DNA from: a virus
Taxonomy: Duplodnaviria; Caudoviricetes
Strand: one strand, 5' to 3'
DNA: 64,000 bases
IMG/VR virus record: IMGVR_UViG_3300047678_000274
Span: 1,091-65,090 of that record
The position numbers and the translations under genes are program-made. Within the stretch, counting starts at the first letter, position 1; each line of letters begins with the position of its first letter. Under the pieces are notes generated by a model that saw only the letters and a program-made list of their open reading frames with translations, was not told the DNA's origin and made no database searches. Below, piece by piece: positions 294 to 24,149 of this stretch.

Positions 294-368
294 GGTCCCT
301 TCGTCTAGTGGCTAGGACACCAGCTTTTCAAGCTGGGAAAGAGGGATCGAAACCCTCAGGGACTTCCA
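294..368 (+). tRNA. tRNA-Glu(TTC)
   Basis: Cloverleaf; acceptor GGTCCCT/AGGGACT, anticodon loop TTTTCAA, T-loop ATCGAAA, encoded CCA. Confidence 0.9.
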
Positions 369-2645: not shown

Positions 2646-2722
2646 GGCTACTTAGGCCAACTGGCAGAGGCATTTGACTTAAGATCAAATTAGTGTCAGT
2701 TCGAATCTGACAGTAGCTACCA
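2646..2722 (+). tRNA. tRNA-Leu(TAA) with short variable loop
   Basis: Acceptor GGCTACT/AGTAGCT, anticodon loop CTTAAGA, 5-nt variable region, CCA. Confidence 0.85.
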
Positions 2723-11098: not shown

Positions 11099-12238
11099 AT
11101 GGGTAGAAAACTAAATACGCAGAAGACAGATTTTCTGCGTGATCTCATCATGGAGTTTCCAGATGAGAATACTTCAGTTGCAGCGGACGGTGTTGCCGCA
11201 GCTGAGTTTAGTGGCTGGGTAGACACGGGCAGCTACGCGCTGAACGCTGTTCTGTCTGGTTCAATGTATGGTGGCATCGCTGATAACAAATCCACCGGGT
11301 TTGCTGGCGAGTCGGCAACCGGAAAGACCTTCTTTGTTCTTGGGGTTGTGAAAGCATTCCAAGACAAGTATGATGATGGTATTGTTATCTATTACGATAC
11401 AGAAGCGGCTGTGACTAAGGCCATGATGGAGTCGCGCGGTATTGATACGAAACGTGTGGTGATCTCTGAACCAGAGACGATCCAGAAGTTCCGTCACCAC
11501 GCTCTTAAAATGCTTGATGCTTACATCAAGACAAAACCAGATAAACGTCCTAAGATGATGTTTGTTCTTGATTCGCTTGGTATGCTTTCTTCTACCAAGG
11601 AAATCGAAGACACCGAAAGGGGTGCTGAGACCAAGGATATGACGAAACCTGGTATCATCAAGGCAGCTTTCCGCGTTCTTACGCTTAAAATGGCACGCGC
11701 CAAGGTTCCGATGCTTGTGACAAACCACGTCTACGCCGCCATCGGGGCTTACGTTCCAACGAACGAGATGTCCGGTGGTTCAGGTTTCAAGTACGCCGCA
11801 TCGACAATTGCAATGCTGTCTAAATCGAAAGACCGCGATGGCAAAGACGTTATTGGTTCGCTCATCCGCGTGCGTATGTATAAGTCTCGTCTCTCTAAAG
11901 AGAATCAGATGGTCACAGTTAAGCTGTCCTACAAGACAGGTCTTGACCGTTACTATGGGTTGCATGAGATGTGTATCGAGGCTGGTATCTGGCAGAAAGC
12001 TGCTAAGGGTGTCAAGATCGGCAACTCCGGTTACTTCGAGAAAGCCATCTATAAGAACCCTGAAAAGTTCTTCACTCCTGAAGTTATGGAACGTCTTGAG
12101 AAGTATGTGAATGCGACATACAGCTACGGTGGTGGTTCAACCGATGAAGAGCTTGACGAAGAAGTCGACGAGGTCTTCGAGGAAGAAGTCAAGGTCAAAG
12201 CCAAGCGCAAAGTTGTCGCAAGAAAGAAAAGATCCTAA
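11099..12238 (+). CDS. uvsX: RecA-like recombinase UvsX
   Basis: DTGSYALN, AGESATGKT, YYDTE, FVLDSLGML, MSGGSG. Confidence 0.95.
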   Translation: MGRKLNTQKTDFLRDLIMEFPDENTSVAADGVAAAEFSGWVDTGSYALNAVLSGSMYGGIADNKSTGFAGESATGKTFFVLGVVKAFQDKYDDGIVIYYDTEAAVTKAMMESRGIDTKRVVISEPETIQKFRHHALKMLDAYIKTKPDKRPKMMFVLDSLGMLSSTKEIEDTERGAETKDMTKPGIIKAAFRVLTLKMARAKVPMLVTNHVYAAIGAYVPTNEMSGGSGFKYAASTIAMLSKSKDRDGKDVIGSLIRVRMYKSRLSKENQMVTVKLSYKTGLDRYYGLHEMCIEAGIWQKAAKGVKIGNSGYFEKAIYKNPEKFFTPEVMERLEKYVNATYSYGGGSTDEELDEEVDEVFEEEVKVKAKRKVVARKKRS

Positions 12239-14552: not shown

Positions 14553-14734
14553 CTCTGGTGGAATGTGGTGATGGTCTATCGATTCGCTCTAGACTCTCAG
14601 CGGCAAGCGTTCTCTCTGATCACAGAGGACGACGGAATAGACGAGGTAGCCGATTAGTCGGTAAGTGGGGTTCTTCTCGTTACACGTACCACCAAAGCAA
14701 GATGGGGGCGGCTCGAAAGGGTCGCCCCTTTTTT
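14553..14734 (+). ncRNA. Candidate late-expressed structured ncRNA
   Basis: TATAAATA at 14541; long closing stem TGGTGGAATGTGGTGATGG/TCGTTACACGTACCACCA; internal hairpins; ends in terminator. Confidence 0.6.
14705..14734 (+). terminator. Intrinsic terminator
   Basis: GGGGCGGCTC-gaaa-GGGTCGCCCC-TTTTTT. Confidence 0.85.
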
Positions 14735-16480: not shown

Positions 16481-16545
16481 GCTGGCCTCCTGTAAGGTTA
16501 GAACCGGTGGGATTGGCGTCCGCGACCGGCCTTTTTGTATTTACC
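16481..16545 (-). promoter_or_regulatory. Conserved HEG leader: TAAATA, bulged hairpin, RBS (copy 1)
   Basis: TAAATA..CCGGT-CGCGGA-CGCCAA-TCCC-ACCGG..TAACCTTACAGGAGGCCAGC-ATG; related to copies at 58045 and 62521. Confidence 0.75.
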
Positions 16546-16638
16546 CAGCCCGTTTATTAAATATGATTAATAATCAACAAACCCCTTCATCGGAATGGTT
16601 TATTAAAAACATTTAATGAAAAAACGACTTTACGACCG

Positions 16639-16666
16639 TTGACAACTGCCGCAGTTCAGGTATACT
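16639..16666 (+). promoter_or_regulatory. Early promoter A
   Basis: TTGACA-N16-TATACT with AT-rich upstream region; shares CAGTTCAGGTATACT with promoter B. Confidence 0.85.
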
Positions 16667-16675
16667 GATTGAACT

Positions 16676-16793
16676 AAGGGAAAAGGGCGCAGCGAACTCA
16701 AGACGCCACCGGAATGGACTTAAATTCCGGGACTACTTTACCCGCCATTGTTTGACATTGCAAGATATTGACGGTCTACCGTTTAGGTATACC
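16676..16793 (+). ncRNA. Structured leader RNA plus boxA-like motif, copy A
   Basis: Three-stem junction, then TGTTTGACATTGCAAGA and a hairpin; covaries with copy B. Confidence 0.65.
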
Positions 16794-16936
16794 TTGGAGC
16801 GCTCTGGGATTTAAGCCCAAGCTGCCAGTGATAAATGTTACCTTTGTGCGGTAACGCTCCAGAATACGACTTGCTCATTTTAGAGCGTTCCTATCTGGGA
16901 ACGTTCCAATGTGAGCAAGGTGAAATGGAGAATACT

Positions 16937-17233
16937 ATGACAGCTATCTTACCAACCGGTCAATACATCAATCCTCAGAAGCCTGAGGACGCGATGTTCT
17001 TTGACCCAGGTCAAGTCGCCTACATTCTTCAAGACGGAAAGAAATTTCGCGTCTGGACATCGTACGGCGACCTTGGTGAAGGATGGAATATCGGAACCTT
17101 CCACGACGGTTACCATGATAAATCCAGGGTTTACCTTGGTTCCTTCAGGGTGATCGGCAAGGCGGTGTTCGCGACCGGCGAGAAAACTGGTACGATCCCC
17201 AATCGAAAACTGCCCCACGGCGTTTTCAAATAG
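16937..17233 (+). CDS. Early hypothetical protein
   Basis: RBS TGGAGA, ATG 16937. Confidence 0.7.
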   Translation: MTAILPTGQYINPQKPEDAMFFDPGQVAYILQDGKKFRVWTSYGDLGEGWNIGTFHDGYHDKSRVYLGSFRVIGKAVFATGEKTGTIPNRKLPHGVFK

Positions 17234-17296
17234 ACTGCAAACCCCAGGCTCTTCGGAGCGCTGGGGTTTCAGCAGTGCAAGAATGGAGAAAATTGC

Positions 17297-17689
17297 ATGT
17301 TTAACGTTTCTGGCATGACCCTCGTTGGCCTCCTTGACGAAGTTAGCGACGCGGTCGAGAAAATCCTCACTGAGGACATGACTCACCTGACAGACGTTTG
17401 TCCGCTCGGACTAGATAACCGCTGCAACTACAGCGGCATCTGGATCAACGGCGACTACATCGTGGTTAAGAAAAGCGAAAAACGCGTGATGGAATATTAC
17501 GGCGGCTTCGAATATGTCGACCGTGACTACGTCACCGAAATCGGCGACTATGTGATTTACTCGCGCGAAGATGGTCGGGTCGATGACCACATCTTCCGCT
17601 GGGAGATAATGGACCTCTCTGAAGAGGAGAGGGATGCGAAGCTTGAGGCTCGTCAAGAGCGAGAAGATCGCGAACGCCAATATCGCTAA
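17297..17689 (+). CDS. Early hypothetical protein
   Basis: RBS TGGAGA; YYGGFEYVD motif. Confidence 0.75.
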   Translation: MFNVSGMTLVGLLDEVSDAVEKILTEDMTHLTDVCPLGLDNRCNYSGIWINGDYIVVKKSEKRVMEYYGGFEYVDRDYVTEIGDYVIYSREDGRVDDHIFRWEIMDLSEEERDAKLEARQEREDRERQYR

Positions 17690-17745
17690 CGGCACTGAAC
17701 CCAGCAACAAAGGTTGCTGGGTTTCAGCGTATGAGGAGACCAATA

Positions 17746-17994
17746 ATGATTATCGAAAAGAAACAAATTCAGGAAATGCCGTGCGATGATACGGGTCGTG
17801 TTTTCTGTTGTGAAGCCTCTGAGATTGGCCTGCCACCCGGCAGCTGGCCCGCTCGCCTGCGCGTTGACCAAGACGTCGGCAACGGTCGCGACCTCATTTG
17901 CTATGGTTGGGCAACGGATGAAACTATGTTTTATGTCCAGCCTAACCAACCGGGTGAAGTCGACGGTATCGAACTTCACATCCTCAACGACTAG
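17746..17994 (+). CDS. Early hypothetical protein
   Basis: RBS GAGGAG; EASEIGLPPGSWP. Confidence 0.75.
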   Translation: MIIEKKQIQEMPCDDTGRVFCCEASEIGLPPGSWPARLRVDQDVGNGRDLICYGWATDETMFYVQPNQPGEVDGIELHILND

Positions 17995-18005
17995 GAGAAC
18001 CAAAC

Positions 18006-18275
18006 ATGCTTATCACTCGTAAATCTATGCTCAGCGGTATTGAGCGGGCGCGCGACATTCCTGCAACCCAGGAAATGTTCGACCGCTATGCGGCTGGTGA
18101 ACTACTTCAAACCGCTTTCCTCAGCCTCAGCGCTGGCCAGCGCGAGTTCATCAAAACCGGCATTACCGATGAGGATTGGGAAGGGCTCTTTGAAGAAGGC
18201 GAAGAGCTCAAGGACGAACTGGACGACAGCGACCGCCAAACTGAGCATGAGCTCTACGAAAAAGGTTGGCGCTAA
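18006..18275 (+). CDS. Early hypothetical protein
   Basis: RBS AGGAG; LLQTAF..LSAGQREFIKTGIT..DW; tail shared with 21140-21679. Confidence 0.75.
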   Translation: MLITRKSMLSGIERARDIPATQEMFDRYAAGELLQTAFLSLSAGQREFIKTGITDEDWEGLFEEGEELKDELDDSDRQTEHELYEKGWR

Positions 18276-18329
18276 CTCCTTACCCCGCTACGTCGTAGCG
18301 GGGTCAAGGCGTATGTAAGGAGAACTAAA

Positions 18330-18542
18330 ATGGATTATGTGGTTGACAACGGAGGCGAACGCGCCATCCCCTGGGAATACAAACAGGAGGAAACGCTTCG
18401 TCCTAATCCCTGCGATACCTGCAAGTTTGCGGCTCGCTGTGAGGCTAACGGAACGGACTGCTTCGCTTTCCGCCGTTGGACGCATGACGGTAACTACAAC
18501 GATCGCCAGATCGACCGACTCACGCGTCCCTTTGAAGTCTAG
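18330..18542 (+). CDS. Early Cys-rich small protein
   Basis: RBS AAGGAG; PCDTC...C...C. Confidence 0.7.
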   Translation: MDYVVDNGGERAIPWEYKQEETLRPNPCDTCKFAARCEANGTDCFAFRRWTHDGNYNDRQIDRLTRPFEV

Positions 18543-18550
18543 GAGGCTTC

Positions 18551-18769
18551 ATGGAACTCTCTGAAAAACTTGATATTAAAGACCTTGCCCACGAGATGAC
18601 TATGTGGCGCAAGGACCCAGGTCAGCTGCGCTTCGGCCAGCGGATCTGGAACCTCTATGGAAAGCCGGGTCATTCGTGGCCAGAGCTTTTCTATGAGAAA
18701 AACGAAATGGAGGCATACAGCCTCCTGCTGGCCGCGCTGTACGTCAGGCGCGACTTAGCTAGAGCCTAA
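18551..18769 (+). CDS. Early hypothetical protein
   Basis: RBS AGGAGG; LRFGQ...PELFYE. Confidence 0.7.
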   Translation: MELSEKLDIKDLAHEMTMWRKDPGQLRFGQRIWNLYGKPGHSWPELFYEKNEMEAYSLLLAALYVRRDLARA

Positions 18770-18898
18770 CCCTTTACCCCGGTGCAAGAGCGCTGGGGTA
18801 AAGCCGTAGTGAAAAGGGTATATTAACGATTTATCGTTAATCAATATGGAACCTTTCTCCGATTTAATAAAAAAGTTTCAAAGTCCTTTATCTGGTGG

Positions 18899-18926
18899 TT
18901 GCTTTTTCTGCCAGTTCAGGTATACT
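18899..18926 (+). promoter_or_regulatory. Early promoter B
   Basis: TTGCTT-N16-TATACT. Confidence 0.8.
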
Positions 18927-18937
18927 TATGAGACTTG

Positions 18938-19057
18938 AAGGTAAACCGGCGCAGCGGACTAAAGACGCCACGGGCCAGAATTAAGGACCCGGACTAGGTT
19001 AAGCCGCCACTGTTTGACATTGCAAGAGATTGACGCGACCTCCGCTTAGGAGGCGCA
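18938..19057 (+). ncRNA. Structured leader RNA plus boxA-like motif, copy B
   Basis: Same architecture as 16676-16793 with compensatory changes. Confidence 0.65.
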
Positions 19058-19173
19058 ACTACTGTGAAGGTAGTCAACTTTACTACCTTCACATCTCCGA
19101 CTGTTACCCCTACGGAAACCCGTGGGGGTTTCAGCACGCCTGGCACTTAACGCCAGGTGATGGAAAATACCAA

Positions 19174-19425
19174 ATGGCTAACGCTCGTGTTGCTCGTGCT
19201 CGTGACCTTGTCACCCGTTTCAAACGGATCAAAGCGGCAGTGATCGTGACCGACACCCTGCTCGACACCTACTTCACTCGTCGCGCTGACGAGATCGAAG
19301 CGTTCAACGAGGACCTGGCGGTAACGCTCACGGTCACGAAGGACGAAGTGATTACCGACATCAAAGCGGTCGCAGCCAAAAAGGCTGCGCCTGCGAAACG
19401 CGCTACTCGCCGTAAAGCTAAGTAG
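19174..19425 (+). CDS. Early protein with basic K/A/R-rich tail
   Basis: ATG 19174; ends AAKKAAPAKRATRRKAK. Confidence 0.7.
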   Translation: MANARVARARDLVTRFKRIKAAVIVTDTLLDTYFTRRADEIEAFNEDLAVTLTVTKDEVITDIKAVAAKKAAPAKRATRRKAK

Positions 19426-19495
19426 TTGCCTCACCCCCAGCCAAAGTGCTGGGGGCACAGGCGTGTCCAGTATCCTGCTGGTGGAGAATTGAAAT

Positions 19496-19693
19496 ATGAA
19501 ACGCGCCAAAAAACTTAAAGTCAAAACCCCGGTCTTCACGATCAAGCACAAAAATACGTGCAAGGGTTCGATGATGGAAGGTGTGACTTTCAAATTGACC
19601 TACGTGCGCCGTGAGGACATGGAACGCTCGTCGGCCTACTTGACCGAACTCGGCGTCGACCACAAAGTGATCGAGCCTAAGCTCGCGGCCTAA
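19496..19693 (+). CDS. Early hypothetical protein
   Basis: RBS GGAG; flanked by hairpins. Confidence 0.7.
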   Translation: MKRAKKLKVKTPVFTIKHKNTCKGSMMEGVTFKLTYVRREDMERSSAYLTELGVDHKVIEPKLAA

Positions 19694-19752
19694 GCCTAAT
19701 GACCCCAGCGGAAACCCGCTGGGGTACAGGCATTGTGAGAAGAGGAGATTTA

Positions 19753-20595
19753 ATGCTCATACGCAAATCTGCTGGCATCATCCTGATTGCCTGTGGTACT
19801 GGACTGGCCGCCATCTCCGGCGTGCTAGCCTATGCGGGATTTGAGAGTCAAATCAAAATCCCGTTTGCTGGGTGGATCGGACCGTTTACGGCTGCTGCGG
19901 GCATTGCCCTCGGCATCGCTGTAGAAAGCGAAATCCGCCATCGCCGCTGGGTTGCCGCAGGCATCCTGGCCGTTCTTCTCGTTATTGCTGGCGGTCTTGA
20001 CCGTCACTCTGGCGAGTTGGCGCTGGCGAATAAGGTTGAGGAAGCCGGTCAGGCTTTCTCTGACCGAAACTCCACTTATACCACCGCTGTCGGTTCTAAA
20101 GCGGCTGCTGAAAAGCAGATCACTGACCTTGACGCAGAACTCCTGCTGATGGTTGCTGAAGATGCTCCGACGATCAAAAAAGCCCAGCTTCGGCTGAGCT
20201 CGCTTGGTTACTACGACAATAAAATCGATGGCGTCCGTGGCGGAGACACCCTCAAGGGTATGAACCGTCGCGGTGCTGAAATCCGCGCGCTGCTGGTTAC
20301 GGCGCGTGATGAATTGAAGAAAGCGACGGATACGGTCGCTGCGGGAGCTCCCACTGCGGAACTCCCGTTTAACCTGGCCGACGCTGGTCTCTACGCCACG
20401 TTGATCACTGTTCTGTCGATCGTGCTGGCCTTCGCGGGTTCATACGTCTTCGCCGGTTTTGATAAGCCGGTTGATATCGACAACGAGCTTGAAGAGCTTG
20501 AAGACGCCATGAGCGGCGTCGAGGGCGAAATCTTCGAGCTTGTTTCCTTCATGGATGAACAGAAGAAGCGCGCTGGCTCTAAAAAGCGTCGCTAA
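19753..20595 (+). CDS. Multi-TM membrane protein with a peptidoglycan-binding-like segment
   Basis: Three N-terminal and one C-terminal TM; IKKAQLRLSSLGYY..KIDGVRGGDT resembles PG_binding_1. Confidence 0.7.
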   Translation: MLIRKSAGIILIACGTGLAAISGVLAYAGFESQIKIPFAGWIGPFTAAAGIALGIAVESEIRHRRWVAAGILAVLLVIAGGLDRHSGELALANKVEEAGQAFSDRNSTYTTAVGSKAAAEKQITDLDAELLLMVAEDAPTIKKAQLRLSSLGYYDNKIDGVRGGDTLKGMNRRGAEIRALLVTARDELKKATDTVAAGAPTAELPFNLADAGLYATLITVLSIVLAFAGSYVFAGFDKPVDIDNELEELEDAMSGVEGEIFELVSFMDEQKKRAGSKKRR

Positions 20596-20658
20596 CGTCC
20601 TTAACCCCCAGCCAAAGTGCTGGGGGTTTTGGCGTGTGTAACATGGAGAAACCTACAC

Positions 20659-21078
20659 ATGACGACCTACACGACTTTCAACAAAGCCACTCTCGCCACG
20701 CTTCGCAACGAACTCAACGTTGTGCTGCATAAATTTGGTCAGGAGTCTGGTTTGATGTTTACGATCGGGAACATTCGTTTCGCTCCCGATGGTTCGACGA
20801 TGCATACACGTCTCGATGCCCACGTCAAAGGTGCTCTTTCGACTGAGTCAGTTCAGCTGGGTCAAACCCCGGCGCTGATGAAGGTTTTGAAAGACAACAA
20901 GATGGGTGACACCTTCCTCTCTCCGATAAGTGGTGAGATCACCCTGCTTGACTATCGTCCCCGTTCACACAAGTACCCATTCATCGGGAAACGTCGCGAC
21001 GGCAAGCGGTTTAAGTTCTCGTTCTCGGAAGTTCTGGCGGGTCAGTCCCCGGCCAAGATGCTCGCGGCAAAGAAATAG
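20659..21078 (+). CDS. Early hypothetical protein
   Basis: RBS TGGAGA; YRPRSHKYPF...GKRFKF. Confidence 0.75.
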   Translation: MTTYTTFNKATLATLRNELNVVLHKFGQESGLMFTIGNIRFAPDGSTMHTRLDAHVKGALSTESVQLGQTPALMKVLKDNKMGDTFLSPISGEITLLDYRPRSHKYPFIGKRRDGKRFKFSFSEVLAGQSPAKMLAAKK

Positions 21079-21139
21079 CCTACTTACCCCAGCCGCCCGG
21101 CGGCTGGGGTAGAGCCGTAGCCAGAATGGAGAATTTAAC

Positions 21140-21679
21140 ATGGCCCTGTCTTACAACGTTGAAGTTCTTGAGAAATTCAAAGCTCTCGCCATTCAACACC
21201 CCGGCCAGCTTGTGCCAGGTAAGACTTTCTACAGCAACGGTTATCCGGCTGAGTTCACTGTGACTCGCCTTTTGACTGAAGCTGAACACGACGTCGCTTT
21301 CGGTCTTTCTGAAAGCTCGCGCGTGCGGTCAGCCGACACAATTGAGTTGCGTTGGTTCGGCTATATGGTTGATGGCTTCAATGGTGAGAAACACGAGAGC
21401 TACGTCTCTATGTGGGATCGCAACATCGGCCAAAGCTACAACCCGTGGCTGATTTTCGCCGACAAAGAAACGCTTGAAGCGTGCAACAAAGAGTTGATCG
21501 TCACCCACTACACGTCTGAAAAAGACAAGCGGTGGGAAGAAATGAACGACAGCTACATGGACACTTATCCGTATGACGAATATCCGGATGAGCCGATCGA
21601 TCCGCTTGAAGATGCGGATGGCCTTGACGACAGCGACCGCCAAACTGAGCATGAGCTCTACGAAAAAGGTTGGCGCTAA
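21140..21679 (+). CDS. Early hypothetical protein with acidic tail
   Basis: RBS TGGAGA; tail LDDSDRQTEHELYEKGWR shared with 18006-18275. Confidence 0.75.
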   Translation: MALSYNVEVLEKFKALAIQHPGQLVPGKTFYSNGYPAEFTVTRLLTEAEHDVAFGLSESSRVRSADTIELRWFGYMVDGFNGEKHESYVSMWDRNIGQSYNPWLIFADKETLEACNKELIVTHYTSEKDKRWEEMNDSYMDTYPYDEYPDEPIDPLEDADGLDDSDRQTEHELYEKGWR

Positions 21680-21736
21680 CTCCTTACCCCAGCAGAAACC
21701 TGCTGGGGTACAGGCGTAGTGAATGGAGAAAATCAC

Positions 21737-22123
21737 ATGGCTGTTATTATCGACGCTACTTACTCTGACCTCCACAAGGACGTCTACGGCTTCCGGCCGC
21801 GTGGCGTTAACTTCGAGACCCAGGAAGAATATGACGCGGAATATGAGCGTCTTGTTCGCCAACTCGATGTGGTGATGGAGGACGAGCGGCTCGCCAAAAT
21901 CCGCGCTGTCAAGACTGTGAAGGATCGCCTTTGTGGGTTGATGCGTGATCACGGCATCGACGGGCTCACCGCTCTGCAGTGGGACTACGATGCTATGGGC
22001 TGTGACGGCTGGTACGGCTGGGAAGACTACTGTTACACAACCGGGATCGGCTTCGCGCTAGACCGGAAGATGTTCCGCCTCGGCATCAAGCCTCCGCTTA
22101 AATTCCAGCAATTTAAGTCGTAA
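21737..22123 (+). CDS. Early hypothetical protein
   Basis: RBS TGGAGA; YSDLHKDVYGFRPR motif. Confidence 0.75.
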   Translation: MAVIIDATYSDLHKDVYGFRPRGVNFETQEEYDAEYERLVRQLDVVMEDERLAKIRAVKTVKDRLCGLMRDHGIDGLTALQWDYDAMGCDGWYGWEDYCYTTGIGFALDRKMFRLGIKPPLKFQQFKS

Positions 22124-22172
22124 CTACCTTTACCCCACCGGAACCAGGTGGGGTTTTGGTGTGTAAATTTTA

Positions 22173-22248
22173 GGACCATTAGCTCAGCGGTTAGAGCTCC
22201 CCGTTGTCGGCGGGAATGTCGCCGGTTCGAATCCGGCATGGTTCGCCA
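22173..22248 (+). tRNA. tRNA-Asp(GTC)
   Basis: Acceptor GGACCAT/ATGGTTC, D-arm GCTC/GAGC, anticodon GTC, TTCGAAT, CCA. Confidence 0.88.
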
Positions 22249-22315
22249 ATATCGGTACTTCTGCGCGAGGCGGAAGCTAAGTCACTCAGTAAAATGCTGG
22301 GAGCCGAGTAATACT

Positions 22316-22401
22316 GGGATGGTAAAGTGCGGGGTCCTGCACAGTTGGCCTGTAAAGCCGATCCTTAAATGGGAGTGGTTCGAATCCACACTCTCCCACC
22401 A
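22316..22401 (+). tRNA. tRNA-Tyr(GTA), atypical D-arm
   Basis: Anticodon loop CTGTAAA, long variable arm, GTGG-TTCGAAT-CCAC, CCA. Confidence 0.7.
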
Positions 22402-22581
22402 ATTTCCAAAATCATTGAACCCCAACGGAAACCTGTTGGGGTTTCAGTGTGCAAAAAACAAGGTCCCTAGTACCACTCTATAAAATCTTCGAGCGTTCTT
22501 CACGATAGAGAGAAGAACTGGGATGGCAGGGCTCGCGTCCTTTACTTGTTTTTTGTATTTTGCTTTAACAAGGAACTGATT

Positions 22582-22785
22582 ATGAGAAACCACCTTATCG
22601 CTATCGCTTCAATCGCTGCACTCATGCTTCTTGCTTTGGGTGGATGCGGTAAAGATTATTCCAGTGATGGCACTTCGCTGTCTTTCTGGACCGACAAAGC
22701 CACCGGCTGTAACTATGTGGTACAATCTCAAGGCGGGATTTACCCACGCCGTGGCTTCCCGGAACCTGCCGCCTGTAAGGACTAG
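22582..22785 (+). CDS. Small lipoprotein
   Basis: Signal peptide with LGGC lipobox; RBS AAGGA. Confidence 0.7.
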   Translation: MRNHLIAIASIAALMLLALGGCGKDYSSDGTSLSFWTDKATGCNYVVQSQGGIYPRRGFPEPAACKD

Positions 22786-22788
22786 TGA

Positions 22789-22971
22789 ATGAAGAAGGTA
22801 TCTGAGATGCCTTGGGACGACCCCGATTTTGTGGCGGCTATGAAAGTCGCATACAGAACGGGTTATAGTAACGGTGAGCACGATGGTGTCACTTATTACG
22901 ACAGAACGTCTACCTCGCGCGACAGCTTCGCAGATTTTATGCGTGATGCAAAAGACGGCTTCGAAGATTAA
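22789..22971 (+). CDS. Small hypothetical protein
   Basis: 60-aa ORF before terminator. Confidence 0.55.
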   Translation: MKKVSEMPWDDPDFVAAMKVAYRTGYSNGEHDGVTYYDRTSTSRDSFADFMRDAKDGFED

Positions 22972-22977
22972 TTAAAA

Positions 22978-23006
22978 GAAACCCTCCAGTTCGCTGGAGG
23001 GTTTTT
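22978..23006 (+). terminator. Intrinsic terminator closing the early block
   Basis: AAACCCTCCAG-ttcg-CTGGAGGGTTTTT. Confidence 0.85.
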
Positions 23007-23016
23007 CATATCCTGA

Positions 23017-23044
23017 TTGACAAACCTGCCAAAAGAGGTATAAT
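23017..23044 (+). promoter_or_regulatory. Sigma70-like promoter
   Basis: TTGACA-N16-TATAAT. Confidence 0.8.
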
Positions 23045-23249
23045 CAATTGTCCACTGTGAATACGAAGGAGTAATTATGATTCACGATCCACTTGGAAGC
23101 GAGAAAACCTTGAGGAACAGCGATGAGGTTGTTCAGAAACTCATTGAGTTGCGGGATGATCTTTGGAGATGTCGGAAAGTTTTGTCTTTTCCCGAAACCA
23201 TGATCGCATTCAAGATCAACAGCTGTCTGTATCAACCAAAGGAAAGGTC

Positions 23250-24149
23250 ATGAGAACGGAAACATCTGTCTTGGTTGAAAGCATCGAATTTATCAGAAAT
23301 TTTTCAACCCACAAAGGTTTGCTTAAGATCAAATACAAAGACAGAGACAACAAGGAAATTATCTTTGTCGGCGGTATGCATGCACATGGTCTTTTGTCTG
23401 AGAGTGAAGAAGGAAACCATTTTCAATTATTCTTTGAACAGGTAAAGTCATGATCTACATCCGCACCGCCGATAAGATTTCTCAGCCGTTCACTATTCCT
23501 CTTTGGTCCAAGATTTTAGCCACACTTTTTGCTTGCTATTTCGTCTGGATCACGGTAGAATACGTTAAGATGGTTTCAATGGAAAGTGAGATCGCACGTC
23601 TTGAGGTTACCACAGCAGCTAAATACGAGTTGATAGCTCGCCTTGAAGATACCAAGGTTGTGCTCGACGAAGCAATTAAAAATCAAGATCTTGTGATCGA
23701 AACGGCCAGAAGGATGTACACAGATGAACTCTCAGCTATCCATTAATTGGAAACTTGCTCAAGAACTCGCAAGCGAGCGTGATAAACTCGACGCTGATCT
23801 AACCAGCCTACAGACAGAGTTGCGTCATCTTTCTTCAACTGTAAATCAGAAAATTGCCGCCAAGGAATTGGTGTTGAGCAAACTGAATCGCCTACAAGAA
23901 GAAACCAGCAAGCTTGTTACTACGGGTGAGTGGGTTCTGAAAAAACCAATTAGTCCTACGCCATTGAGCGGGGTCGCCACTGGTTCGAACTCTGCCCTTA
24001 TTTCTAAGACCCTTAATGAGAATGTGATATGGAATTTCGTGAAAGAAACCTTCGTGAAAGCATGGAATTTCTTCTTCAACAGGCCCAAAAAGGTAAACCC
24101 GTCTGTAACGCCAGAGTCGCCGCTGGACTCCTCTACAAAGGTGAGCTAA
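23250..24149 (+). other. Run of three small hypothetical genes (23250-23453, 23450-23746 with TM, 23724-24149 coiled-coil)
   Basis: Coupled starts and stops. Confidence 0.55.

Follow-up and report, generated by a model that had tools for sequence, protein, structure and literature searches.

Intercistronic hairpins from a block of early genes in an uncultured T4-like phage: candidate promoter-less counterparts of PeSL units

Promoter-early stem-loops (PeSLs) have been described in the T4-type phages RB49/phi1, PST/T4 and nt-1/KVP40 (PMC2839356, PMC4122927). According to the sections of these papers drawn on here, the stem-loop lies just 3' of the upstream gene and is followed by a sigma-70-type early promoter (-35, ~17 nt, -10) and then by the Shine-Dalgarno sequence, which forms the 3' end of the unit together with the start codon; excised mini-circles between neighbouring units are reported as well. 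Degraded "half" PeSLs, which keep only part of the motif, are mentioned in the same portion of Comeau et al. (PMC4122927).

The locus analysed here belongs to an uncultured phage and lies in a DNA stretch of 64 kb (hereafter the window), whose backbone is a fragment of a T4-like phage with a UvsX gene at 11099-12238 and other T4-type replication genes. Compared with the PeSLs as presented in those sections, both systems display repeated intergenic units of stem-loop, Shine-Dalgarno and start codon between small, mostly orphan genes. In both, the units occupy hyperplastic regions of T4-type genomes, beside genes that differ between relatives, the stems contain G/C runs, and indels, replacements and displacements between relatives occur at the units. 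In contrast to the PeSLs, a promoter-like site was detected by promoter scan in none of the nine linkers preceding a gene, and most of these are too short for one, so that the cassettes are not self-expressed. Furthermore, the stem reads CCCC...GGGG instead of GGGG...CCCC, a second, covarying lower stem is present, and the family is limited to one GC-rich island, while the same phage also keeps ordinary terminator-plus-promoter units in its backbone (22979-23044 and 2353-2436). Whereas the "half" PeSLs are described as degraded, the promoter-less form is here the conserved rule. The PeSL analogy drawn in the original prediction is thus retained as the closest known kind, but it is inexact with respect to the promoter. 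With somewhat better than even confidence, the hairpins are regarded as promoter-less PeSL-like intercistronic linkers in a foreign early-gene island, and the array would then be a promoter-less variant of a layout for gene shuffling that is known from T4-type phages.

The island and its hairpin family

The GC content of the island is 0.50-0.55 against about 0.42 in the flanks, as noted initially, and GC3 amounts to 0.62 versus 0.44. The island is best read as a hyperplastic, compositionally foreign early-gene block of the T4-like phage. A promoter-like site (P1) marks its left edge (Table 1). The leader following P1 is partly duplicated further downstream (16652-16787 versus 18912-19050, 77% over 140 nt), next to a second promoter-like site, TTGCTT-16-TATACT at 18899-18926, which is absent from the promoter-scan list. 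A motif of 55 nt in the duplicated leader (19007-19061) is kept in all four lineages compared below.

Ten of the island proteins (A to J) were scanned: eight had no match in PHROG and none gave a Pfam match above cut-off. The label of host-takeover genes given earlier is therefore not supported. From the tRNA pair initially proposed, the tRNA-Asp was called by both programs, while the second element stayed below the Rfam threshold.

Table 1. Features of the island, with positions in the window. R1, score with the covariance model described in the text; z, z-score of the fold energy.
Feature	Position	Strand	Remarks
P1, promoter-like site	16639-16666	+	TTGACA-16-TATACT; island's left edge; matches consensus 11/12
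Leader 3' of P1	16673-16936	+	partly duplicated 3' of the second promoter-like site (P2)
Gene A	16937-17233	+	98 aa; no known family; in 3 lineages, at differing places
h1	17230-17280	+	R1 29.9 bits; -29.0 kcal/mol; z -5.33; C(UUCG)G loop
Gene B	17297-17689	+	130 aa
h2	17688-17735	+	R1 41.4 bits; z -5.68
Gene C	17746-17994	+	82 aa; same family between H and I in contig L032
Gene D	18006-18275	+	89 aa; phrog_20898; C-terminal tail common to K
h3	18271-18317	+	R1 34.7 bits; z -4.94
Gene E	18330-18542	+	70 aa
Gene F	18551-18769	+	72 aa
h4	18765-18812	+	R1 40.8 bits; z -5.74; last one 5' of second promoter-like region
Second promoter-like region and duplicated leader	18899-19094	+	
h5	19095-19142	+	R1 36.8 bits; z -4.63; within leader, no upstream gene
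Gene G	19174-19425	+	83 aa; basic C-terminal tail; in 4/4 lineages
h6	19422-19469	+	R1 40.9 bits; z -2.65
Gene H	19496-19693	+	65 aa; in 4/4 lineages
h7	19691-19738	+	R1 46.1 bits; z -7.02
Gene I	19753-20595	+	280 aa; in 4/4 lineages; weak PG_binding_1 match below cut-off
h8	20593-20640	+	R1 46.8 bits; z -4.95
Gene J	20659-21078	+	139 aa
h9	21075-21123	+	R1 35.9 bits; z -4.10
Gene K	21140-21679	+	179 aa; among the four lineages, only in the window's own
h10	21675-21722	+	R1 51.5 bits; z -6.04
Gene L	21737-22123	+	128 aa
h11	22121-22167	+	R1 match; sole hairpin with terminator-type T-run
tRNA-Asp (GTC)	22173-22248	+	called by ARAGORN and Rfam
tRNA-like sequence	22315-22398	+	Rfam tRNA-Sec, 30.1 bits vs gathering score 47; no ARAGORN call
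h12	22408-22455	+	R1 45.0 bits; z -5.23; island's right edge, 3' of tRNA-like sequence

Twelve related hairpins with the core ACCCC...GGGGT lie on the + strand between 17230 and 22455 and none elsewhere in the window. A search for the pattern CCCC-N-GGGG gave 13 matches against 2.18 expected, a number reached in none of 100 shuffles. All were on the + strand within 17242-22441 and represent 11 distinct hairpins, two being counted twice; the twelfth (17700-17721) has CCC/GGG instead. Fold energies of all 12 ranged from -22 to -29 kcal/mol (z -2.65 to -7.02), and for ten of them an equal folding was obtained in 0/200 shuffles. A covariance model (R1) built from these 12 sequences recovered each of them in sense orientation within 17230-22455 of the window; the only other matches were 10 weak antisense shadows at corresponding positions. 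Pattern count, folding and model all bear out the series of 12 hairpins punctuating the gene array that had been noticed at first.

Each element has a lower stem that is separated by a small internal loop from an upper stem; the latter has an invariant ACCCC/GGGGU base and a variable top, and it ends in a loop that is mostly A-rich. Standard pairs occupied 95.8% of 506 pair cells, compared with 76.9% in shuffles, and both sides had changed in 86 pair cells, a level reached by 0/500 shuffles. The compensatory variation proposed for the upper stems was hence recovered, and it applies to the lower stems as well: cognate flanks paired with -8.26 kcal/mol versus -6.58 kcal/mol for non-cognate ones, which was matched by 0/2000 permutations. 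Two always-paired variable stem columns contained 18 G-U or U-G cells and no unpaired cell. As G-U pairs are confined to the sense strand, the fold holds only there, and selection for it acts either on the transcript or on this strand of the DNA. For phage T4, Tuerk and colleagues reportedly described stable intercistronic hairpins of the C(UUCG)G and similar types in 1988. Those are likewise small, very stable and located between T4-type genes, and h1 displays the same loop; unlike them, the hairpins studied here all belong to a single sequence family that has an invariant base and a lower stem, is confined to an island and is linked to gene shuffling.

The position of the hairpins relative to the genes is regular. 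For 10 of the 12 island genes a hairpin follows 7-10 nt 3' of the stop codon; C and D, like E and F, are not separated by one. In agreement with the initial description, TAAC overlaps the stop codon in 6/12 cases, and a GGAG-type site with a start codon comes after 9 of the 12 hairpins. Of these nine linkers, seven measure 24-32 nt and two 40-45 nt. A scan for T-run terminators (at least 5 T in 8, sense strand) was passed by h11 alone, confirming that most elements lack a U-tract, in contrast to the backbone with its T-run terminators at 14704-14729 and 22979-23004; the hairpins were thus rejected as full intrinsic terminators as a class.

Exchange of cassettes between relatives

In three additional lineages of the clade to which the phage belongs, the covariance model detected 10-15 hairpins each, always in the matching island. 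All records are fragments, 8-37% complete, within which the hairpins clustered as follows: 15/15 within 32.7-38.8 kb of 50.7 kb (G001), 14/14 within the first 5.4 kb of 30.5 kb (G002) and 10/10 within 4.1 kb in each of G004, G005 and G006. The comparison of gene order suggested in the original prediction showed that the order is not fixed; it differs among all four lineages at single-gene grain. Single-gene cassettes, tRNA genes included, were gained, lost and reordered between lineages with breakpoints in or at linkers. Several hairpins are chimeric, their 5' flank tracking the upstream gene and their 3' tail the downstream gene.

The finest resolution was offered by L032 and G001 (98.9-99.5% identity), whose differences come down to two indels of one cassette each; both indels have an end that lies within or next to a hairpin. 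The first is precise, the exchange running from linker to linker at GTGT, within the conserved 3' tails of two hairpins. The start of the second coincides with the first C in the core of a hairpin; as its joint shows no homology and its other end lies 9 nt within a gene, it resembles an illegitimate deletion. In the metagenome contig X4, gene K has been dropped from hairpin start to hairpin start (joint 21084->21685, 6 shared letters). Among the assembled contigs, a joint going back from 22127 to 19101, from an 85-95% relative, fits another gene order or a circle equally.

Hairpin elements make up 12-13.5% of the islands. Of 119 ends of blastn HSPs, 61 fell within them and 58 outside, these ends being non-independent as reciprocal pairs are counted twice and ends tend to run into conserved linkers. 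Since nearly every intergenic gap contains a hairpin, a breakpoint at a hairpin is to some extent simply a breakpoint between genes, and such positions would already be favoured by selection for intact genes. At the C/D junction, a breakpoint occurs where no hairpin is present. At the level of sequence comparison, the putative role of the hairpins as recombination joints, already inferred in the original prediction, is supported by the gene orders, the HSP ends, the L032/G001 indels and the X4 joint.

In the proposed mechanism, the island would be read as long early transcripts from one or two sigma-70-type promoters. The hairpins would most likely act as stable 3' structures which protect the upstream message and dampen read-through, and those with UUU 3' of the stem, half of the total, may function as weak attenuators rather than full terminators. 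Conserved stretches of 45-75 bp, made up of hairpin, 3' tail and ribosome-binding site, would serve as homology patches at which the phage's own general recombination system (UvsX) would carry out exchanges. Such exchanges at linkers would keep the genes whole and expressed.

Alternative functions of the hairpins

Signals for RNase III of the T7 type comprise a coaxial helix of about two turns (~20 bp), in which the cleavage site lies at an internal loop. Like the T7 early signals, the elements described here occur as one irregular hairpin per gap between the cistrons of a putative long early transcript, have an internal loop that separates upper and lower stem, and lack a U-run; the phage family is unrelated. 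They could be sites for RNase III, or for another host or phage RNase, producing messages for single genes, each closed by a protective hairpin; among the alternatives this one survives best, and yet it is unlikely. It would account for the two-part helix with its small internal loop or bulge, the provision of one element per gene with the T-run missing in most, the sense-strand specificity of the fold and the regular distance between stem and start codon (23-34 nt to the ATG in 35 of 54 distinct linkers). Against it, the composite helices contain 12-19 pairs in total, short of the T7 sites, and no Rfam family matched any hairpin at E up to 1. A search for a RegB-like gene found none, but its positive control was silent too.

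The next possibility, which we consider improbable, is that the hairpins came with the island as simple weak terminators or attenuators and play no causal part in recombination. The breakpoints would lie at the hairpins only through the loss of recombinants cut within genes. UUU or UUUU directly after the strong GC stem in 6/12 hairpins and the T-run of h11 are in line with this reading, and so is the joint without homology in one of the two strain-level indels. In addition, PeSL stem-loops lacking long T-runs terminated in reporter assays, according to the part of that report used here (PMC2839356). The other 6/12, however, have no U-run at all. The precise exchange inside two conserved 3' tails, the hairpin-to-hairpin joint of X4 and the chimeric hairpins also argue against it.

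In 51/51 distinct elements the ACCCC/GGGGU base is unchanged, in contrast to the freely covarying stem tops. This invariance exceeds the needs of stability alone and could point to a specific binding factor, either a site-specific or structure-specific recombinase or nuclease that would use the folded single strand as its substrate, as in integrons, or an RNA-binding regulator shutting off the early block as a whole. The predominance of A-rich loops and the deletion beginning at the first C of a core would suit such a factor, and the same possibility was raised by Arbiol et al. for the GGGG...CCCC stems of PeSLs, in the portion of the article considered here (PMC2839356). Copy-and-paste among linkers may also explain the invariance of the core, and the conserved proteins G and H have no family and no usable look-alike. 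Integron attC sites carry paired R and L boxes, a GTTRRRY core and extrahelical bases, and the IntI tyrosine recombinase is encoded with the array. As in integrons, imperfect palindromes close single promoter-less cassettes that would be read from an upstream promoter, and the fold resides in one strand; the context differs, being a virulent T4-like phage. By inspection, neither attC boxes nor extrahelical bases were seen in the 12 window and 51 aligned elements. The search for a recombinase recommended earlier returned no tyrosine recombinase (PF00589, Phage_integrase) in five partial records, each 15-37% complete, the control being positive in 14/14 genomes. The integron analogy was accordingly not supported, and the reading as sites for a dedicated factor is placed below the two preceding ones, as decidedly improbable.

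Selfish mobile repeats of REP or MITE type, spreading by themselves and perhaps derived from a host, are hardly credible in spite of the multi-copy palindromic family with a conserved core: REP-type host repeats were rejected, as 185,579 species' genomes contained 32 loci of one match each (two records with two loci) and no array, the seven loci tested scored 21.9-25 bits versus 28.5-51.5 bits for the island elements, and in every phage record the hairpins are restricted to the island and keep a constant orientation and a constant position relative to stop and start codons.

The hairpin family and its genomic setting

Twelve hairpins belonging to one family (h1 to h12) were found on the plus strand, all within positions 17230-22455. 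This stretch, referred to here as the island, holds the small early genes A to L and a tRNA gene. A search with the pattern CCCC-N-GGGG gave 13 matches representing 11 distinct hairpins, every one of them inside the island, while 2.18 matches were expected and none of 100 shuffles reached 13. The same clustering was obtained in a perfect-stem scan of the entire 65-kb record. The folding energy of the individual hairpins ranged from -22 to -29 kcal/mol (z from -2.65 to -7.02), and for ten of the twelve an equally stable fold was reached in 0 of 200 shuffles.

The hairpins share a common anatomy. The upstream stop codon is followed by 7-10 nt which include the 5' arm of a lower stem of 3-5 bp, then by a small internal loop or bulge, the invariant A-CCCC and 3-6 variable stem pairs. 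The loop is mostly A-rich (GAAAC, CAAAG), with UUCG occurring once. The return arm closes with GGGG-T and leads into the 3' arm of the lower stem and a semi-conserved tail (CGTAGTGA, CGTGTCCA and similar). A GGAG-type ribosome-binding site and a start codon lie downstream of 9 of the 12 hairpins. Ten of the twelve island genes have a hairpin at their end, and there is none between C and D or between E and F; h5 is located within a leader and h12 behind a tRNA-like sequence. Roughly half of the linkers contain 3-5 bases 5' of the ATGGAGAA ribosome site which can pair with bases just before the ATG (GTGA/TCAC, GCAA/TTGC, GTGTA/TACAC, GTTA/TAAC). There is a weak indication that this pairing would present GGAG in a small loop, the cognate stems giving -1.68 kcal/mol versus -1.40 kcal/mol when permuted (observed value reached in 147 of 5000 permutations).

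The surrounding genome has a T4-like backbone with a split gp43-type DNA polymerase, UvsX, a gp41-type helicase and ribonucleotide reductase. The identity of the polymerase to the closest isolates is below 48%, and the record is a fragment estimated by CheckV to be 37% complete. Late-promoter motifs (TATAAATA) were detected seven times against 1.6 expected, none of them in the island. The hairpin block is a compositional island, with a GC content of 0.50-0.55 versus about 0.42 and a GC3 of 0.62 versus 0.44, all 12 genes lying between 0.55 and 0.71. It is opened by a promoter-like site (P1), part of which recurs further downstream (P2). Among the ten island proteins scanned (A to J), only B and D had a PHROG match and none reached the Pfam cut-off.

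Features in and around the island (window coordinates)
Feature	Position	Score or identity	Remarks
P1, near-consensus sigma-70 promoter	16639-16666	11/12 consensus	opens the island, followed by a 265-nt leader
P2, repeat of the -10 box with part of the leader	18899-19094
Leader duplication	16652-16787 and 18912-19050	77% over 140 nt	-10 box included
55-nt core motif	19007-19061	83-92% identical	two TTGAC words 11 nt apart; directly precedes hairpin and gene G in all four lineages
Linkers with pairing around the ribosome site	17267-17296, 20627-20658, 21709-21736		also in other linkers
Terminator-plus-promoter unit	22979-23044	consensus sigma-70 promoter, 12/12	AT-rich backbone just outside the island; conserved in related record G001
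Terminator-plus-promoter unit	2353-2436	near-consensus sigma-70 promoter, 11/12	AT-rich backbone
Gene I	19753-20595	47-83% identical	present in all four lineages
Copies of the D/K tail	18212-18286 and 21616-21690	95% over 75 nt	reaching into the hairpin
tRNA-Asp	22173-22248		inside the island
tRNA-like sequence	22315-22398	Rfam tRNA-Sec, 30.1 bits (gathering score 47)	no ARAGORN call
tRNA-Leu(taa)	2646-2722		15-20 kb upstream of the island
tRNA-Glu(ttc)	294-368		15-20 kb upstream of the island

Covariation and the strand under selection

A covariance model (R1) was built from the twelve hairpins. Within the window it recovered just these twelve and their weak antisense shadows, a result which is circular given the source of the model, except for the absence of other matches. 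In independent records of the same clade, sense matches were obtained in G001 (15), G002 (14), G003 (13) and G004 to G006 (10 each), all within the homologous island. Ten further matches were located in a 20.9-kb locus of a 141-kb metagenome contig and seven in the contig L032.

Across 51 distinct elements, standard pairs occupied 95.8% of the pair cells versus 76.9% in shuffles, and both sides had changed in 86 cells; the observed values were reached in none of 500 shuffles, figures which are inflated by the relatedness of the elements and biased towards structure by the model-fitted alignment. In slid controls, the paired fraction fell to 38-54%. Two variable columns which are always paired contained 18 G-U or U-G cells and no unpaired cell. 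Since such cells would be A-C mismatches on the opposite strand, the fold is selected in the sense strand, as the transcript or as the same DNA strand when single. The lower stem was out of register in the MAFFT alignment and was therefore tested by folding cognate and non-cognate flank pairs. Cognate flanks gave -8.26 kcal/mol versus -6.58 kcal/mol for non-cognate ones (observed value reached in 0 of 2000 permutations), with three of the 41 elements mis-trimmed (core boundary too far 5') and kept in.

Gene order and proposed recombination joints

The island occupies the same place in four lineages, behind a gp47-like phosphoesterase gene which is 56-75% identical between them. The original prediction had regarded the hairpins also as joints for the swapping of genes, and comparison of the relatives revealed that the order of the genes between hairpins is not fixed and differs among lineages. 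Only the families G, H and I are common to all, while A, C, L, P, R, S and U are found at varying positions; K, Q and several further families each occur in a single lineage.

Order of script-called gene families in the islands (slash, hairpin; P2, second promoter and leader)
Record	Order
Window	A/B/C D/E F/P2/G/H/I/J/K/L/tRNA/
G002	N O/B/P/D/A/E F/P2/G/H/I/Q/J/L/R/
G001	N/A/O/S/P/B/E T/L/U P2/G/H/I/R/u/J/
L032	/G/H/C/I/R/J/
G004	X/S/Y/E U/Z/H/ab/G/P/I/

In blastn comparisons between islands (HSPs of at least 120 nt), 61 of 119 HSP ends, which are not independent of each other, fell within hairpin elements (+/-5 nt) covering 12-13.5% of the islands. As hairpins stand in nearly every gap, selection for whole genes explains part of this breakpoint pattern. 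The sharpest test comes from L032 and G001, which are 98.9-99.5% identical and whose structure over 3.4 kb differs only by two indels of one cassette each. In the first, the 3' tails of two hairpins were exchanged precisely (GTGT exactly common, inside about 16 similar letters), so that a single complete unit made up of ribosome site, gene and hairpin was gained or lost. In the second, G001 has lost the sequence between the first C of a hairpin core and a point 9 nt ahead of the stop of a family-C gene; a 17-nt scar remains, and the joint shows no homology. In relatives of the window, known from assembled contigs of two freshwater-sediment runs, position 21084 is joined to 21685, so that gene K is missing and the joint connects the starts of two hairpins with six letters in common, and 22127 is joined to 19101, placing L directly before an h5-type hairpin. 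Many hairpins also look chimeric, their 5' flank tracking the upstream gene and their 3' tail the downstream gene. The differing cassette orders, the HSP ends, the L032/G001 indels and the contig joints thus support the idea of hairpins as recombination joints.

The tRNA genes act as cassettes too, moving between the main tRNA cluster and the island. The tRNA-Asp of the window island lies about 22 kb from the island in G002 (G002:C1:27667-27751), and tRNA-Leu(taa) and tRNA-Glu(ttc) are inside the island in the G004 lineage (L025, 12027-12194).

A contig from the probable source sample (runs X1 and X2) joins 16516 to 22164 with a short side of only 40 letters. Its tRNA-Asp is a variant, with G>T at 22209 and one T inserted after 22190, and a further tRNA lies behind it. 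The joint probably derives from a second locus or a co-occurring relative and not from excision of the island.

The repeated hairpins also interrupt assemblies. The island holds the ends of two IMG/VR contigs (G002:C1:1, G003:C1:1), and Logan contigs of the source sample (window 17910-22551) stop at 18251/18257, 18803-18820, 21089-21116 and 21655-21786. Metagenome assemblies are therefore likely to truncate such islands or to contain too few of them.

Affiliation and possible role of the hairpins

To our knowledge, the turnover of small orphan early genes in large virulent phages is poorly understood, promoter-early stem-loops (PeSLs) being the one described device. In the two PeSL papers, a PeSL consists of a stem-loop, an early promoter and a Shine-Dalgarno sequence; these units cluster in hyperplastic regions, mark indels, replacements and displacements, and are proposed to serve the phage's own recombination on patches shorter than 50 bp (PMC2839356; PMC4122927). 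A paper on the cyanophage 'ORFanage' weighs PeSLs and sets them aside (PMC4503421). PeSLs are the closest described kind for the island hairpins, which share with them every testable feature except the promoter, a difference qualified by the supplementary PeSL lists of both papers, which may include promoter-less examples. The hairpins are thus best classed as working in a PeSL-like manner, as a promoter-less variant and not as strict members. The principle of such linkers is already known, and the island family is a variant of it; no description of this family or of the phage clade was found in Rfam or in the PeSL literature, where searches led only to the two PeSL papers and to works that cite them. 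PeSL-type units in the strict sense are present in the backbone, where both terminator-plus-promoter units display a T-run terminator hairpin directly followed by the sigma-70 promoter, a Shine-Dalgarno sequence and a start codon. The island shows that a promoter is not required for such a device, a conserved RNA hairpin and a ribosome-binding site being sufficient to mark mobile single-gene units. The block departs in codon composition from the remaining genome, which is a hint of a gene pool common to phage lineages.

Concerning their function, we infer that the hairpins are stable 3' structures in long early transcripts, giving protection against 3' decay or partial attenuation, which agrees with selection on the sense strand, with the placement right behind the stop codon and with the absence of U-runs. 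RNase III-type cleavage, an analogy drawn in the original prediction, is possible but unsupported, the helices counting just 12-19 pairs. A specific binding factor is conceivable in view of the complete invariance of ACCCC/GGGGU. Taken much further, the island could be a semi-autonomous cassette-exchange platform in a virulent T4-like phage, combining a dedicated-factor site with cassette trade in an integron-like manner without a tyrosine integrase, a reading we consider improbable. If it held, the invariant base and the A-rich loop would be recognised by the dedicated factor, for example a structure-specific recombinase or nuclease, or an RNA-binding switch. This factor could be the small basic G or H, found in all four lineages, or a product of the two thirds of the genome not covered by the record; the persistent difference in GC3 (0.62 vs 0.44) would reflect trade with GC-richer phages of the same host, and the traded pool would include tRNA genes. 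For the roles of stabiliser, attenuator or cleavage site, the roughly 50 covarying hairpins offer a natural test set.

Several other identities were rejected. As terminators, only h11 passed a T-run terminator scan, UUU or UUUU following the stem in six of the twelve and being absent in the other six. Promoter-bearing units were dismissed since none of nine gene-preceding linkers carried a promoter-like site; the ATG stands 23-34 nt after the stem in 35 of 54 distinct linkers, most of which are too short to hold a promoter. No run of at least nine complementary bases linked either leader to any linker, as a trans-acting guide or ribozyme would have it, and leader-linker duplex energies were no better than in shuffles (observed reached in 19 of 100 for P1 and 92 of 100 for P2). 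Integron cassettes were rejected as no tyrosine recombinase was found in five partial records. Host repeats were likewise rejected: one genome each for 185,579 species yielded 32 single-match loci and no array, the seven look-alike loci tested scoring 21.9-25 bits versus 28.5-51.5 bits for island elements.

Searches outside the clade gave little. Against 50,697 phage records, the island had no megablast match, and blastn returned the tRNA-Asp only, in 90 Pseudomonas phage records. Two hairpin patterns run on IMG/VR retrieved only the same four lineages and three single look-alikes. L003 and L008, in contigs of 57% GC with the 20-mer core once each and no more elements, were discarded as chance look-alikes. 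Rfam at E up to 1 over 16500-23500 gave no family for any hairpin or leader and no ribozyme. RegB (PF10715) had no match, which is uninformative as the control was equally silent.

Among the individual products, G and H had best protein-atlas look-alike scores of 0.75 and 0.80, below lead level; gene J had no tblastn match in phage isolates and gene K none in a second viral scan. The product of gene I, which by eye looks hydrophobic at either end, is weakly matched by PG_binding_1 in its middle part (E 0.0087 and 16.7 bits, with a cut-off of 23) and may be an envelope protein. The tRNA-like sequence preceding h12 has good D, anticodon and T arms, a CCA-like end and the anticodon loop CUGUAAA, together with one mismatched acceptor pair and a short variable arm; possibly it is a tRNA that has decayed or is unusual. 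The same C-terminal tail of 17-20 residues (DDSDRQTEHELYEKGWR) closes the products of the unrelated genes D and K. It is kept in the distant K homologues P0002 and P0004 and in the G002 copy of D, and is absent from P0003 and from the 71-aa DLP6 homologue of D. Being kept in distant homologues, the tail has the look of a C-terminal peptide module that is conserved and can be transferred, and would be more than the scar of a recent recombination.
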